The notes under the pieces were generated by a model. That model ran no database searches, was not told where the DNA came from, and saw only the letters and a program-made list of their open reading frames with translations. From an uncultured Actinomycetes bacterium (GTDB lineage: Bacteria > Actinomycetota > Thermoleophilia > Gaiellales > JAICJC01): a stretch of DNA of 64,000 nt. The stretch is taken from assembly GCA_963797175.1 (NCBI GenBank), contig CAWCOL010000011.1, positions 95,853 to 159,852 of the forward strand, written 5' to 3'. Below, one piece after another: positions 5,521-33,893 of this stretch (within the stretch, counting starts at the first letter, position 1; the number at the start of each line of letters is the position of its first letter). A program made the position numbers and the translations under genes.

Positions 5521-6648
5521 GTGAGCGATCTGCACCGGCTGCTCGCCGATCTCGTCGCCGTCGAGTCCGTCAATCCCGACCTCGTCCCGGGCGGCACCGG
5601 CGAGGCCGCGATGGCACGGTTCGTCGCGTCGTGGCTGGCCGCGGCGGGGCTCGAGGTGCGGGTGGACGAGGTCGCGCCGGGCCGCTGCAACGTCGTCGCC
5701 GTGGCGCGCGGTACGGGCGGCGGCCGCTCGCTGCTCCTGAACGCGCACATGGACACCGTGGCGCTGGACGGCGTCGACCGGCCGCTGGTCGGGCGGATCG
5801 AGGACGGCCGCATGTACGGCCGCGGCGCCTACGACATGAAGGCGGGGCTGGCGGCGATCATGTGGGCCGGGGCCGAGGCCGCCCGCCGGCCGCGGGCCGG
5901 CGACGTGATCGTGACCGGAGTGTGCGACGAGGAGTACGCCAGCATCGGCGCGCAGGCGCTGGTGCAGAGCACATGGGCCGACGCGGCGATCGTGACGGAG
6001 CCGACCGGCGACCGGGTGCGGATCGCGATCGCGCACAAGGGGTTCACCTGGCACCGGATCGAGGTGCGCGGCCGGTCGGCGCACGGCTCGCTGCCGGACG
6101 AGGGCGTCGACGCGATCGCGCACATGGGCCGGGTGCTGGCCGGGATCGAGCGGCTCTCCGGGGAGCTGGCCGACCGCGAGCCGCATCCCCTGCTCGGGCA
6201 CGGGTCGATCCACGCCTCGCTGATCGAGGGCGGCCGCGAGCTCTCCAGCTACCCCGACCGCTGCGTGCTCCAGCTCGAGCGGCGCACGTTGCCCGGAGAG
6301 ACACAGGAGGTGGTGGAGGGCGAGCTGAACGCGATCCTGAGCGAGCTCGCCGCCGCGGACCCGACGTTCCAGGCGGAGCTGCACACGTCGCTGGTGCGCC
6401 CGCCGCTGGGGACGGATGCCGGCGAGCCGATCGTCGAGGCCGCCCGTGCCGCCCTGGGGCCGGACGTCGAGCTGATCGGCGTGCCGTTCTGGGCCGACTC
6501 CGCGCTGATCGCCCAGGCCGGCATCCCCACCATCATCTTCGGCCCCGGCGGGGCCGGCGCGCACGCCGACGTCGAGTGGGTCGACCTTGCCCAGCTCGAC
6601 CGGGTGGCCGAGGCGCTGATCGCGGTCAGCGCCTCGTTCTGCGGCTGA
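5521..6648 (+). CDS. M20-family metallopeptidase (ArgE/DapE/acetylornithine deacetylase-like)
   Basis: LLADLVAVESVNPDL, LLLNAHMDTV and DEEYASIGA are typical M20 motifs. Confidence 0.85.
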   Translation: MSDLHRLLADLVAVESVNPDLVPGGTGEAAMARFVASWLAAAGLEVRVDEVAPGRCNVVAVARGTGGGRSLLLNAHMDTVALDGVDRPLVGRIEDGRMYGRGAYDMKAGLAAIMWAGAEAARRPRAGDVIVTGVCDEEYASIGAQALVQSTWADAAIVTEPTGDRVRIAIAHKGFTWHRIEVRGRSAHGSLPDEGVDAIAHMGRVLAGIERLSGELADREPHPLLGHGSIHASLIEGGRELSSYPDRCVLQLERRTLPGETQEVVEGELNAILSELAAADPTFQAELHTSLVRPPLGTDAGEPIVEAARAALGPDVELIGVPFWADSALIAQAGIPTIIFGPGGAGAHADVEWVDLAQLDRVAEALIAVSASFCG

Positions 6649-6748
6649 CCTCCGGTGCCGGGCACCGAGCCCGGCACGGACTCCGGCACGGAGTCTGGCA
6701 CCGACTCCGGCACCGTGCCCGGCACCAGTTCGGGTCCAGGTGCCAGGG
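6649..6748. repeat. REP-like array, about 7 units with 12-nt phasing (consensus about ACCGACTCCGGC)
   Basis: Units read accgagcccggc / acggactccggc / acggagtctggc / accgactccggc / accgtgcccggc / accagttcgggt. Terminal hairpins are GGTGCC-g-GGCACC (6654-6666) and GGCACC..GGTGCC (6721-6743). It fills the gap between two convergent stop codons. Confidence 0.8.
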
Positions 6749-7312
6749 TCAGCGCCACGGCGCCGGCGCCGGGAGCGGCACCATGCCGTCGCTGACGAAG
6801 CGCTCCAGGGAGGCGATCGAGCTGAACTGGTCGCGGATCCAGTCGAGGTCGAGGAAGGTCGGCGCCGGGTCGAGCCCGATCATCGCCCTGTAGGACGACG
6901 GTCCCCAGTCGGCCGGCGCCATGCACTGGTGCGCGCGCACGGGATTGAGCGCGAGGTAGCGGATCGTCTCCTTGAGGTGCGAGTCCGAGTCGATCATCTC
7001 GGCGTGGTACCGCCGCTCGAACAGGTGGCCGCGAAGGCCGTGGCGACGGTTGAACTTGCGGGCGTACTCCGAGTTCAGCTGCTGCATCCCGGCCGCCAGG
7101 TTGGGCTCGGGCGTGCGCGCCACGAGGTGGTAGTGGTTGGTCATCAGGCAGTAGGCGAACATGCGCCAGCCGTAGCGGGCCTGCACCTTCGCAACTAGCG
7201 CGAGGAAGAGCCGGTGGTCGTGTTCGGTGAAGAACACGACCTGGCCGCCGTTGCCGCGCATGGTCAGGTGGTAGAAGCCGTCGGCGATCTGGATTCTGAG
7301 TGGTCTGGACAT
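6749..7312 (-). CDS. REP-associated tyrosine transposase (RAYT; IS200/IS605-like Y1 HUH transposase domain)
   Basis: Has the HUH motif NHYHLV and the Tyr region ETIRYLALNPVRA. The product is 187 aa. No IS ends are apparent, but it is flanked by palindromic repeats. Confidence 0.8.
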   Translation of the reverse strand: MSRPLRIQIADGFYHLTMRGNGGQVVFFTEHDHRLFLALVAKVQARYGWRMFAYCLMTNHYHLVARTPEPNLAAGMQQLNSEYARKFNRRHGLRGHLFERRYHAEMIDSDSHLKETIRYLALNPVRAHQCMAPADWGPSSYRAMIGLDPAPTFLDLDWIRDQFSSIASLERFVSDGMVPLPAPAPWR

Positions 7313-7395
7313 GCCGCCAGCGTACGGACACCTCGCGTCACGGTGCTCGCACCACCCGTGCCGGATCCGTCACGGTTCGCTCACGTATGTGAAGT

Positions 7396-7470
7396 CCTCC
7401 GGCACCGAGTCTGGCACCGAGCCGGAGTACGTGCCGGAGTCAGTGCCCGGCTCGGTACCGGAGAACGATT
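7396..7470. repeat. REP-like array (2 forward plus about 3 inverted 12-nt units)
   Basis: Sequence ggcaccgagtct ggcaccgagccg gagtacgtgccg gagtcagtgccc ggctcggtaccg. Positions 7401-7417 are complementary to 7431-7447 at 14 of 17 positions. Confidence 0.8.
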
Positions 7471-7473
7471 CGG

Positions 7474-7869
7474 CTACCCGGAGACGGCGTCCGAGATCCA
7501 CTGGCCGAAGGCCTGCGGATCGGCCGTGCTGGAGCCGCCCACGCAGACGATCCGGGTGCCCGGCTCGAGCGCGGCGTAGGAGCGGACGGCGGCCGGATCG
7601 GGTGCCGCGACCACGGTGCCGGGCCCGGCCTCGACGCGGTCGTCGCCGATCTCGAAGGCGGCGCGGCCGGAGACGACGATGTACGCCTCCTGCTGGCCGG
7701 TCTCCTCCTCGGAGTGGCTGATGTCGAAGTCCTCGCCCGGGTCGCACACGATCGCGTTGATCCCGAACCCGGTCACGCCCAGCGGCCCGTTCAGTTGCTG
7801 CCACCGGCCGTACGGCGTCTCGGAGATCGGCTGGTCGTCGAGATTCACAGAGGCCACTGGCCCTCCCAT
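7474..7869 (-). CDS. Cupin-domain protein
   Basis: 131-aa ORF with good GC3 and a single cupin-like beta-barrel sequence (EAYIVVSGRAAFEIGDD...GTVV). Confidence 0.6.
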   Translation of the reverse strand: MGGPVASVNLDDQPISETPYGRWQQLNGPLGVTGFGINAIVCDPGEDFDISHSEEETGQQEAYIVVSGRAAFEIGDDRVEAGPGTVVAAPDPAAVRSYAALEPGTRIVCVGGSSTADPQAFGQWISDAVSG

Positions 7870-31596: not shown

Positions 31597-31600
<4 letters not shown>

Positions 31601-32088
31601 GGGTGCTCGTCCTCGCCGACACGCACGTGCCCGACCACGCACGCGCGCTGCCGGCGTCGCTCGCGCCGCACCTGGAGTGGGCCGAGCTGATCCTGCACGC
31701 GGGCGACGCGACCTCCGCCGACGTGTTGGTCGAGCTGTCGGCGTCCGCCCCGGTGCGGGCGGTCGTGGGCAACATGGACGGCTGGGACGTGCCGGGGTGG
31801 GGCGCCGCCGAGCAGCTCGAGCTTGAGCTCGAGGGCGTCCGGGTGGCGATGCTGCACGACTCCGGCGCCCGCCACGGACGCGAAGCACGGCTCCGTCGCC
31901 GGTTCCCCGATGCCGGCGTGATCGTCTTCGCCCACTCCCACCAGCCGGTCAACGAGGTTGCGGACGGCGTGCGGTTCCTCAACCCCGGCAGCCCAACCTG
32001 GAAGCGGCGGGCGCCCGAGCCGACGGTCGCCCGGCTGACGCTGGCCGGAGGCCGCGCGGAGGCCGAGCTCGTGCCGCTCGCGGGCTGA
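31597..32088 (+). CDS. YfcE/MJ0936-family metallophosphoesterase
   Basis: Contains [21 protein letters not shown] and AHSHQP. The ATG overlaps the ilvD TGA. Confidence 0.85.
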
Positions 32089-32378
32089 CCGGTGCCGGGC
32101 ACCGACCCCGGCACCGAGTCTGGCTCCGACTGCGGTACCTAGCCCGGCACCGACTCCGGCACGAACTCTGGCTCGGTGCCAGAGTCGGTGCCGGAGGACT
32201 TCCAATGCGTGGTGAGGAACGGCGGGTGCCGTGACACGTCGTCGCGGATCTGGCACGAACGACGGCCTGGTTGAGCCGAACCGTCGAACGTGACGGCCGG
32301 CGTGACGGTGGCCCGAAATGTCACAGAGGTGCCGGGTTCCGTGCCGGAGTCGGTACCGAGAGTCCGTGCCGGAGTAGT
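32089..32378. repeat. REP-like arrays flanking a roughly 130-bp core; transposase-less counterpart of 6649-7470
   Basis: 32089-32195 has six forward plus two inverted 12-nt units. 32328-32378 has about four inverted units. 32173-32202 matches the reverse complement of 7391-7420 at 29 of 30 positions. Confidence 0.8.
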
Positions 32379-32399
32379 CAGGTCGGCGCGGCCCGCCGC

Positions 32400-33893
32400 T
32401 CAGCCGGACTCGGTGACGGGCTCGAGGTCGGCCAGGTCGTTCTCGCGCGCGACCTGGAGGTCGCCGTGGCGGGCATGGCCGCCGGACGAGCCGCCGCCCA
32501 GCCGCAGCGCCGGCGGCCGGGCCACGACGAGCGTGGCCGCCGGTGCGGCGACGTGCGCGATGCCGGGCAGCGCGGCCGGGCCGGCCGGAGCCGGGACGAC
32601 CGGGCCGCCCAGGGTGGTGGCGGGATGGGCGCCGACCGCCGGCACCGTGATGCGCAGGTCGTGCGCCGCCTGCCAGGCCAGCAGGTAGCGGTACGGGTCG
32701 ATCACGCCGTCGTACCCCTGCCAGAGCAGCCCTTTCGGGTGCAGCTCGAAGTGCAGGTGGCAGGGGGTGCCCTCGGCGTCGCCGGTGTTGCCCATGAACC
32801 CGAGCACCGTGCCCGCCTTGACATGGTGGCCGCTGACCGCGGCCGGGGCGTAGTCGCGCAGGTGCGCGTAGTAGAACTCGTTGCCGTCGGCGTCGCGCAG
32901 CCACAGCCGGTTGCCGCCCAGCGTGTTCCACCCGACCATGTAGACCATCGAGTCGGTCACCGCCACCAGCGGCGCGCCGCAGCGCGAGAAGATGTCCACG
33001 CCGTGGTGCCAGATCGTGTCGGCGCGGGGCGCGCCGAAGCTGTCGGTGAAGTCGGCGGGCGCGGCCACCGGGAACACGTACCGGCCGGGGGACAGGTGGA
33101 CGTGCACGCGCGGCGCGGGCCGCACCGCGGCGTGGTGGTGCTTCGCCTGGCGTGAGCCGTGGTGCACGACCGGGTGCGCCGGGCGCGTGCCGCCGCCGTG
33201 CGTCCCGCCGCCCTGGTCGCCACCCTGCGGGTGGATTCCGCCCGACCCGTGGTGCGTGCCCTGCCCGCCCGGAAGCGTTCCACCGCCGTGGCCGGGGTCA
33301 GGCGGCGGCGCCGCCTCGGCGCGCCCGACGAGGATCACCGAGCCGGCCGGGAGCCCGCCGTGCGGGCGCATCACGTCGATGCGAAGCGCCGTCGCGGTCG
33401 CGCCGCGGCCGTCCGCGGCGGCGGCGGAGCCGAGCACGGTTGCGCGTCCCCACGTGCTCAGCTGGAAGGTCGCTCCCGGCGTGGCGTCGGTGGCCGTCCC
33501 GTACAGCGCGAGGCCGTCCAGCGTCACCTGCGGCGCGCCGGTGTCGTCCAGCCGCGCCGTCGCGGCGTCCGCCGTCACGCGGCCGTGGAAGAGCGAGACG
33601 TGGGTGGCCGAGGCGGAGCCGTCGCCCAGCGCCGTGCCGCCCAGCTGCACGATCTCGCCGGCGGGCCCGTAGATCCAGCCCGGATGGTCGGGATCGGGAG
33701 CGGGGGCGTCCACCACCTTCGCCGGCCCGTCCGGCTGCGGGATGATCACTCGCGCGATCAGCGGCGCCGGCGCCGGAGCGTCCGCCGCGTGCGCCGGCGC
33801 AACCGCCAGCAGCCCGATCGCAAGCCCCGCGATCAGGCGCGCACAGGCGCCACCGTTGGGACGGCAGCGCGGGATGTCAGCCCGTGCCCCCAC
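32400..33893 (-). CDS. Secreted M23-family metallopeptidase
   Basis: Signal-like N-terminus LIAGLAIGLLAVAPAHA. The M23 motifs HHGVDIF and GNTGDAEGTPCHLHFELH are present. Confidence 0.85.
   Translation of the reverse strand: MGARADIPRCRPNGGACARLIAGLAIGLLAVAPAHAADAPAPAPLIARVIIPQPDGPAKVVDAPAPDPDHPGWIYGPAGEIVQLGGTALGDGSASATHVSLFHGRVTADAATARLDDTGAPQVTLDGLALYGTATDATPGATFQLSTWGRATVLGSAAAADGRGATATALRIDVMRPHGGLPAGSVILVGRAEAAPPPDPGHGGGTLPGGQGTHHGSGGIHPQGGDQGGGTHGGGTRPAHPVVHHGSRQAKHHHAAVRPAPRVHVHLSPGRYVFPVAAPADFTDSFGAPRADTIWHHGVDIFSRCGAPLVAVTDSMVYMVGWNTLGGNRLWLRDADGNEFYYAHLRDYAPAAVSGHHVKAGTVLGFMGNTGDAEGTPCHLHFELHPKGLLWQGYDGVIDPYRYLLAWQAAHDLRITVPAVGAHPATTLGGPVVPAPAGPAALPGIAHVAAPAATLVVARPPALRLGGGSSGGHARHGDLQVARENDLADLEPVTESG

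Follow-up and report, generated by a model that had tools for sequence, protein, structure and literature searches.

A RAYT-like HUH/Y1 transposase gene flanked by inverted 12-nt-phased repeat arrays, with a gene-less copy of the element, in a Gaiellales genome

Introduction

Bacterial Y1 transposase genes accompanied by repeats of their own have been described as REPtrons and as TIRtrons. The former, also known as REPIN-RAYT systems, are exemplified by E. coli TnpAREP and by the REP (repetitive extragenic palindromic)-associated tyrosine transposases (RAYTs) of Pseudomonas (Bertels and Rainey 2011 and Ton-Hoang 2012, as cited in PMC6006769), whereas the latter are built around TIRYT genes, whose terminal inverted repeats (TIRs) may be self-complementary and occur dispersed, in families of moderate abundance (Di Nocera et al. 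2013, PMC3733652). Quentin et al. (2018, PMC6006769) equate TIRYTs with subclass 2.1 of the TnpAY1 enzymes and with group 1 of Bertels, and give Y---NP as the signature of class 2, against Y---Q for IS200 (their Table 1). RAYT/REPIN biology has been worked out almost wholly in Proteobacteria, on enzymes with GTAG-footed hairpin repeats. Subclass 2.1, second in size among the TnpAY1 groups, has no known DNA substrate; surveys of the surroundings of its genes reported no REP-like sequences (PMC6006769) and only assorted TIRs (PMC3733652). Here we analyse a 64-kb stretch of DNA from an uncultured soil actinomycete (hereafter the window), in which a RAYT-like gene at 6749-7312 lies between arrays of a short GC-rich repeat, and which had been read, from the sequence alone, as a REPtron-like unit.

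The observation behind this original prediction is confirmed and its REPtron-like interpretation is supported, although the TIRYT/TIRtron description fits better than that of a canonical REPtron. We regard it as probable, if well short of assured, that the locus represents an intact RAYT-like Y1-HUH enzyme, single-copy in the window and vertically inherited, together with co-evolving cognate repeats of the REPtron/TIRtron type. Loci fetched independently show repeatedly that such genes are associated with short, lineage-specific repeats at their flanks. The Actinomycetota-like host suggested earlier is borne out and can be narrowed to Thermoleophilia, as the IlvD protein of the window is 86-90% identical to proteins of "Gaiellales bacterium" entries.

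An intact class 2 Y1 transposase

The open reading frame 6749-7312 on the minus strand is intact and encodes 187 aa, with the predicted HUH motif in MTNHYHLVA and the tyrosine region in IRYLALNPVRA. In an alignment of 40 homologous sequences N59, H60, H62, R118, Y119, N123, P124 and V125 are invariant, and the motif residues align with those of TnpAREP. Pfam recognises Y1_Tnp (PF01797, E 8.8e-11) as the sole domain, and the sole NCBIfam match is the RAYT equivalog model NF047646 (REP_Tyr_transpos), with 77.2 bits for a cut-off of 80; the nearest ortholog (P0001, 89% identity) scores 83.8 bits and other relatives 50-78. A sequence search of the PDB returned E. coli TnpAREP (4ER8) alone, at E 0.0018, with the HUH and tyrosine motifs aligned. 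The confident AlphaFold2 model (pLDDT 93.7, pTM 0.87) has TnpAREP 4ER8 as its best Foldseek match too (E 1.8e-8, TM 0.67/0.75, 163 columns), followed by the ISDra2, IS200 and IS608 transposases, which align over only about 124 columns. E values for these four, from 1e-8 to 1e-4, indicate the HUH/Y1 alpha/beta fold, so that the HUH metal-binding motif, the one catalytic tyrosine and the fold that define the superfamily are all present in the window protein.

By its Y---NP signature (YLALNP) the protein is assigned to TnpAY1 class 2, the TnpAREP-like enzymes, and this excludes IS200 with its Y---Q; the RAYT kind, as opposed to a canonical IS200 TnpA, was thus rightly recognised. Within class 2 the key motifs listed for subclass 2.1, NH[YF]H or NHVH, W[EQ] or FQ, and Y[IV]HLNP or YIELNP (PMC6006769), make this subclass the closest fit to NHYH, F-E (in LFERRY) and YLALNP, as judged from motifs and not from a tree. 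Pfam finds PF01797 alone in the 187 aa and none of the C-terminal helix-turn-helix (HTH) domains Bac_DnaA_C, HTH_23 or HTH_28, while many longer homologs found in the search do bear HTH domains (PF13384, PF13936); the window protein is thus a short form, from which the HTH is missing. No second RAYT-like sequence was detected in the window by tblastn, no tnpB gene lies beside the RAYT, and an exact-sequence look-up of the protein retrieved no record.

Inverted arrays of 12-nt units on both flanks

The two flanks of the gene are inverted copies of one module, and the ends of the composite element consist of 12-nt-phased units (GGCACC followed by GAsTCy) in mutually inverted orientation. The left array begins 4 nt past the stop of an M20/ArgE-DapE deacylase gene (5521-6648), with the palindrome GGTGCC-g-GGCACC at 6654-6666, as had been noted. 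Tandem Repeats Finder reports here a 12-nt array at 6661-6726, 5.5 copies with the consensus GGCACCGAGTCC, which is outscored by a 24-nt super-period because GAGTC and GACTC units alternate. Our own unit scan gives six forward units (6661-6732), so that the array is real and the earlier count of about seven is slightly high; read by eye, the sequence then turns, and one or two inverted units in degenerate form overlap the RAYT stop. The right array lies 10 nt away from the stop codon of the adjoining gene (7474-7869, minus strand). Its predicted make-up proved accurate: on the plus strand two forward units (7401-7424) precede three inverted ones (7419-7459), and 7401-7417 pairs with 7431-7447 at 14 of 17 positions. 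Of the TIRYT motif GGGGWSAS only an approximate version, GGTGCCAGAs, is present here.

The repeat is confined to few places in the window. A 17-nt pattern, searched with up to three mismatches, has 22 matches (3.3 +/- 1.8 in shuffled sequences; none of 100 shuffles reached 22), 20 of which fall within two loci, 6661-7459 and 32098-32417. Each flank contains a turn from forward to inverted units that forms a hairpin in single-stranded DNA (ssDNA): relative to dinucleotide shuffles the folding z-scores of the two strands are -3.2 and -3.5 for the left array, -3.9 and -5.4 for the right one (the latter on the minus strand), and -6.2 and -7.1 for 32085-32215. The earlier view that the units pair into imperfect hairpins therefore holds as far as significant ssDNA folds go (z from -3.2 to -7.1, the short right array of the second locus excepted), but the arrays are chiefly direct repeats, and palindromy arises solely where forward units meet inverted ones. 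Neither flank has a GTAG or GTGG foot at the hairpin base or a discrete 20-40-nt palindrome, and thus neither is a canonical REP. Comparison of the two window copies by eye revealed no compensatory changes in the hairpin, two copies being too few for covariation, and nowhere in the window does an Rfam family attain its gathering score.

A gene-less copy of the element

The repeat extends beyond the two flanks of the gene, both in the window and, as related elements, on soil metagenome contigs. A composite copy without the RAYT occupies 32089-32399, 25 kb from the gene, where it fills the entire intergenic space between a yfcE-family phosphodiesterase gene (31597-32088, plus strand) and an M23-type peptidase gene (32400-33893, minus strand), whose stops face each other. 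An 82-nt module at 32130-32211 matches the reverse complement of 7382-7463 without gaps at 88% (72/82), and the left array of the gene resembles 32089-32196 at 75% over 105 nt. In the orientation of the RAYT gene the two loci are laid out alike: forward-type units, a turn and two inverted-type units (GGTGCCAGAsTCGGTGCCGGAG) are followed by GGAGGACTTCmmATrCGTG, by 85-130 nt of non-repeated, GTGACR-rich sequence, by the gene or nothing, and finally by an array of inverted-type units. Past its first ~20 nt, the internal segment of 32089-32399 shows no alignment to the gene or its upstream region. Folded whole as ssDNA, the gene-less locus takes a panhandle shape (z = -5.96), in which forward units at the outer side of its left module pair with the far inverted units of its right array. 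On these similarities 32089-32399 is a non-autonomous copy of the gene-bearing element.

In two related Gaiellales metagenome-assembled genomes (MAGs; L256 and L257, IlvD 88-89% identical) the yfcE-family and M23 peptidase genes are both missing from the ilvD-to-coxM interval, so the gene-less element sits in a variable region and no comparison with an orthologous empty site is possible in these genomes. Separately, one of them carries, after an M20 peptidase gene, an unrelated intergenic direct tandem duplication of ~115 nt (L256:19339-19712).

Conserved gene position and lineage-specific repeats in relatives

Relatives of the RAYT combine a stable genomic position with changing repeats. At L246, whose RAYT (P0002) is 58% identical to that of the window, the C-terminus of the same M20/ArgE-DapE deacylase follows convergently (83% identity over 59 aa), which implies that the gene stayed at one locus while it diverged. 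P0003, P0004 and P0006, with 76-84% mutual identity, share the order GT4, RAYT, upp, glyA, and P0005 lies between mreB and maf in all four places shown, of the 14 contigs that bear it. A fixed locus of this kind characterises domesticated RAYTs (Bertels et al., PMC5581495), as opposed to an insertion sequence. Low copy number and a fixed locus, both characteristic of class 2, are thus seen here as one copy per 64 kb, the M20 neighbour shared with L246 and synteny elsewhere in the clade. This synteny argues for vertical descent of the RAYT, apparently kept at one chromosomal locus in the Gaiellales lineage.

The flanks of L246 carry 12-nt arrays, 4.8 copies of GGTGCCGGGCAC upstream and 2.8 copies of GCCCGGCACCGA downstream, and by our own reading ~33 nt of the two flanks are near-perfect inverted repeats. 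More distant relatives (~50% identity) have lineage-specific 13-nt palindromes found solely at the RAYT flanks: GGGGCCAGGCCCC at L001 (one upstream and three downstream; 8 matches for 0.14 expected, all at the gene), GGTGCCTGGCACC at L003, and GGGGTCAGACCC at L247, the last an exact match to GGGGWSAS.

A metagenome scan with a 22-nt pattern derived from the window arrays led to a further, large clade. Its first representative, L222, is a soil contig with a RAYT 36% identical to that of the window (motifs THFH, IWNERY and YVELNA) and with 20.5 copies of CTCCGGCACCGA directly 3' of the gene, between its stop and that of the convergent gene. In the same clade L255 (P0131) bears arrays of GGTACCGGAGTY in the same orientation on both flanks, with 7 matches for 0.11 expected, all of them gene-adjacent, and L253 (P0182) has arrays of 13-nt period on both flanks. 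The RAYT of L253 neighbours an ADOP-family duplicated permease gene (L253:11637-14087; TIGR03434, 778 bits), which suggests Acidobacteriota as the host of this clade. Overall, at least seven independently fetched RAYT loci each have, at both flanks, a lineage-specific unit that is absent from the rest of the 11-20 kb.

Arrays on other contigs

Gene-less elements with the architecture of the window, GTGACG included, occur on five distinct soil contigs (L163/L197, L180, L201, L199 and L236); in L163, L180 and L201 the GTGACR motifs lie just past the turn module. L180:1880-2330 and L201:1800-2240 (reverse strand) have the left flank and the gene-less element in common, differ by exactly one 12-nt unit, and lose homology within the right array, from which it seems that the arrays may be rearrangement breakpoints.

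The same scan also returned many unidirectional arrays, most of them on contigs without a RAYT. On inspection several lie between a stop codon and the next gene, and those of L126, L155 and L228 are clearly coding. For classifying metagenome arrays, two permissive unit definitions yielded noise; a stricter frame test on third-position GC content (GC3) classed 55 of 69 arrays as "unclear" or at a contig edge and 3 as clearly coding-through, and an open-frame test is powerless in 70% GC DNA, where it labels even the window's own intergenic arrays as "open". A scan of genome contigs with the 17-nt pattern gave, among the matches listed, mostly single chance matches and a few arrays that are in-frame coding repeats in Streptomyces, Cellulomonas and Promicromonospora. 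Such coding 12-mers (e.g., GTDS repeats) stand at protein termini in cultured actinobacteria, as at L059:368-486 (Promicromonospora sp. AC04), L107:2857-2940 (Cellulomonas marina) and L228:692-967. The unit GGCACCGACTCC is free of stops in all six frames, and arrays of it would therefore be tolerated within genes.

The region upstream of the gene

The RAYT start is preceded at exactly 6 nt by a -10-like TANNNT hexamer, and no Shine-Dalgarno sequence is present. This position is kept in six RAYT loci (the window, L001, L002, L003, L246 and L247), where the hexamer reads TACGCT, TACCGT, TAGCGT, TACGGT or TACGTT, again with no Shine-Dalgarno sequence, and the arrangement suggests that RAYT mRNAs are leaderless. 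A sigma-70 consensus scan gave nothing, a search for an intrinsic-terminator consensus at the RAYT locus (6500-7600) was negative, and GC skew is flat and gives no basis for judging strand bias with respect to replication. Six GTGACR sites (7336-7341, 7368-7373, 32231-32236, 32290-32295, 32302-32307 and 32319-32324) lie in the inner, non-repeated segments of the two elements for 0.29 expected, an approximately 20-fold excess (Poisson p ~7e-7), and by our own reading five of the six are in the sense orientation of the element. Coordinates of the features are collected in Table 1.

Table 1. Parts of the gene-bearing element and of its gene-less copy in the 64-kb window
Feature	Position	Strand	Details
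Left array A	6652..6756	+	Palindrome GGTGCCgGGCACC at 6654-6666; six forward 12-nt units at 6661-6732; turn; degenerate inverted units over the RAYT stop
RAYT-like HUH/Y1 gene	6749..7312	-	HUH = H60-Y-H62; Tyr = Y119 in YLALNP; Pfam, NCBIfam, AlphaFold2, Foldseek
RAYT upstream region	7313..7396	-	-10-like TACGCT at 7319-7324; GTGACG at 7336-7341 and 7368-7373
Right array B	7397..7463	-	Imperfect hairpin of ~67 nt; in RAYT sense three forward-type units, turn, two inverted-type units (GGTGCCAGACTCGGTGCCGGAG)
Left module C	32089..32196	+	Palindrome CCGGTGCCGGGCACC, ~six forward units, turn, two inverted units; starts right after the yfcE-family stop
Internal non-repeated segment	32197..32327	+	GGAGGACTTCmmATrCGTG in common with the RAYT upstream region; four GTGACR
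Right array D	32328..32385	+	~four inverted units; ends ~15 nt before the M23-type peptidase stop (32400-32402)

Discussion

The window element shares with canonical REPtrons a class 2 Y1 gene that is single-copy (here within the window) and vertically inherited, a repeat family of its own placed in inverted orientation on both flanks, gene-less hairpin-forming copies that are extragenic and located at gene 3' ends, repeats that co-vary with the protein across lineages, and TnpAREP (4ER8) as the best structural match. It departs from them (subclasses 2.2, 2.4, 2.5, 2.7 and 2.8) in the missing GT[AG]G foot, in the phased array of 12-nt units that replaces a discrete 20-40-nt palindrome, and in an NF047646 score under the cut-off. 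In dispersal, the repeat is represented by one further locus in the window and by related elements and arrays on many soil contigs. The REPtron layout proposed originally is therefore upheld in the gene placed between inverted repeat flanks, but the nearest described class is TIRYT/TIRtron.

Likeness to TIRtrons lies in the key motifs (NH[YF]H, F/W-[EQ] and Y-x-x-L-N-P), in the low-copy gene situated between inverted repeats other than GTAG-footed REPs, and in the flank motifs, as GGGGTCAGACCC and GGGGCCAGGCCCC of the relatives and GGTGCCAGAs of the window resemble the published GGGGWSAS. Unlike TIRYTs, the window protein has no C-terminal HTH, and its TIRs are tandem units in 12-nt phase, which in related clades become direct arrays of up to 20 units on one or both flanks. 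The Gaiellales host is a further difference, Actinobacteria being unmentioned in both PMC3733652 and PMC6006769. A literature search for the 12-mer itself yielded only unrelated primer lists; no paper combined "REP-associated tyrosine transposase" with Actinobacteria, and among the papers listed by broader searches none linked RAYTs to actinobacteria. The phased tandem architecture of 12-13 nt, the gene-less composite copies and the Gaiellales host are thus without counterpart in the literature searched.

By analogy with TnpAREP and REPINs, the enzyme would bind modules of hairpin or turn type, perhaps along with the unit arrays, on ssDNA exposed at replication forks, and its HUH/Tyr centre would cut and rejoin the DNA. 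In this way it may maintain, spread and resize its cognate repeats in trans, in line with what has been proposed for RAYT/REPIN systems. Array length could change in whole multiples of 12 nt by slippage between identical units or by their cleavage and rejoining out of register. The arrays would come to sit where convergent genes end, and might also serve there as structural or terminator-like punctuation.

Several points weigh against this reading of an enzyme with co-evolving cognate repeats. The NF047646 score of the window protein is slightly under the model's cut-off, a single extra copy is seen within the window, array D alone has no significant fold, and 43 kb from the two related Gaiellales MAGs contain no such arrays. 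For most arrays on metagenome contigs a non-coding status is not demonstrable. We know of no biochemical evidence for any subclass 2.1 enzyme. Finally, the arrays of the L222 clade are pure direct repeats without a self-hairpin; since they cannot fold alone, hairpin recognition by itself cannot explain them, and models of iteron binding and of unit-by-unit array building stay alive.

The second of these models goes further than the cognate-repeat reading, and we grant it only a small chance. It holds that a RAYT-like branch builds and resizes iteron arrays of 12-13 nt unit by unit, through cleavage and ligation at equivalent sites of neighbouring units rather than by copying discrete hairpins, and that hosts in at least two soil phyla (Gaiellales and probably Acidobacteriota) use the arrays at their gene ends for recombination or as programmable punctuation. 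If true, domesticated transposases would have a mode of action that is new, and TnpAY1 subclass 2.1 would gain its first assigned function.

Among the alternatives, that of double-stranded DNA (dsDNA) iterons fares best, while still being unlikely in our estimate. HUH Reps are known to bind tandem short repeats, as adeno-associated virus (AAV) Rep does with the GCTC Rep-binding element and geminivirus and plasmid Reps do with iterons. By analogy, in those systems too an HUH-protein gene or an origin is accompanied by phased short direct repeats beside a hairpin; they involve other HUH families, however, their context is that of replication origins, and dsDNA binding is hypothetical here. Under this explanation the arrays are bound cooperatively by the RAYT or by another factor for autoregulation or chromosome structuring, with no transposition of repeats. 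The direct, same-orientation arrays on both flanks in the L222 clade would suit it, as would the position of array B ~85 nt upstream of the start codon, near the -10-like hexamer, and the shift of unit sequences between lineages along with the protein. Autoregulation alone, though, is insufficient for gene-less copies 25 kb off and on other contigs, no dsDNA-binding domain is recognisable outside the HUH core, and the forward-to-inverted turns are kept as hairpins.

An autonomous insertion sequence (IS) of the IS200/IS605 type, whose gene and two inverted array ends move together and of which 32089-32399 is a deletion derivative resembling a miniature inverted-repeat transposable element, is improbable on account of synteny, copy number and the tyrosine motif. 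The resemblance is real in the HUH/Y1 fold (Foldseek: ISDra2, IS200, IS608), in structured ends that are inverted copies of one module, in a gene-less derivative with the same ends and a panhandle fold, and in the ~20 nt that its internal segment and the RAYT upstream region have in common. Beyond these ~20 nt, however, the internal segment is unalignable to the gene or the upstream region; the ends are inverted arrays, unlike the same-strand subterminal hairpins of IS200/IS605 (subclass 1.1); the motif is Y---NP and not the Y---Q of IS200 (PMC6006769); tnpB does not adjoin the gene; and one gene copy is found in 64 kb, at a site orthologous to that beside the same M20 gene in a relative with a RAYT only 58% identical, with synteny kept among other clade members.

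That replication slippage or terminator selection makes the arrays independently of the gene, so that the adjacency is coincidental or the gene was inserted into an array, draws on the 12-mer as an in-frame coding repeat in unrelated actinobacteria, on the ease with which a 12-nt period without stops in six frames is tolerated and on the lack of a RAYT on the contigs of most metagenomic arrays, but is very unlikely because the association recurs so often (at least seven independently fetched loci, as described above), and it also faces an 82-nt module, far longer than the unit, common to both window loci and the absence of an intrinsic-terminator consensus at 6500-7600.

These results add to what is known of subclass 2.1 that genes resembling it have, in one divergent lineage after another, short repeats specific to the lineage on either side, which in several lineages take the form of phased 12-13-nt arrays with gene-less copies as well and thereby offer biochemists concrete candidate substrates. 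RAYT-type systems are extended to Thermoleophilia (Gaiellales), and a possible source of short tandem arrays in high-GC soil genomes is indicated. If the enzyme acts on these arrays, a change in unit number would provide an easily scored read-out of RAYT activity, which the field now lacks.

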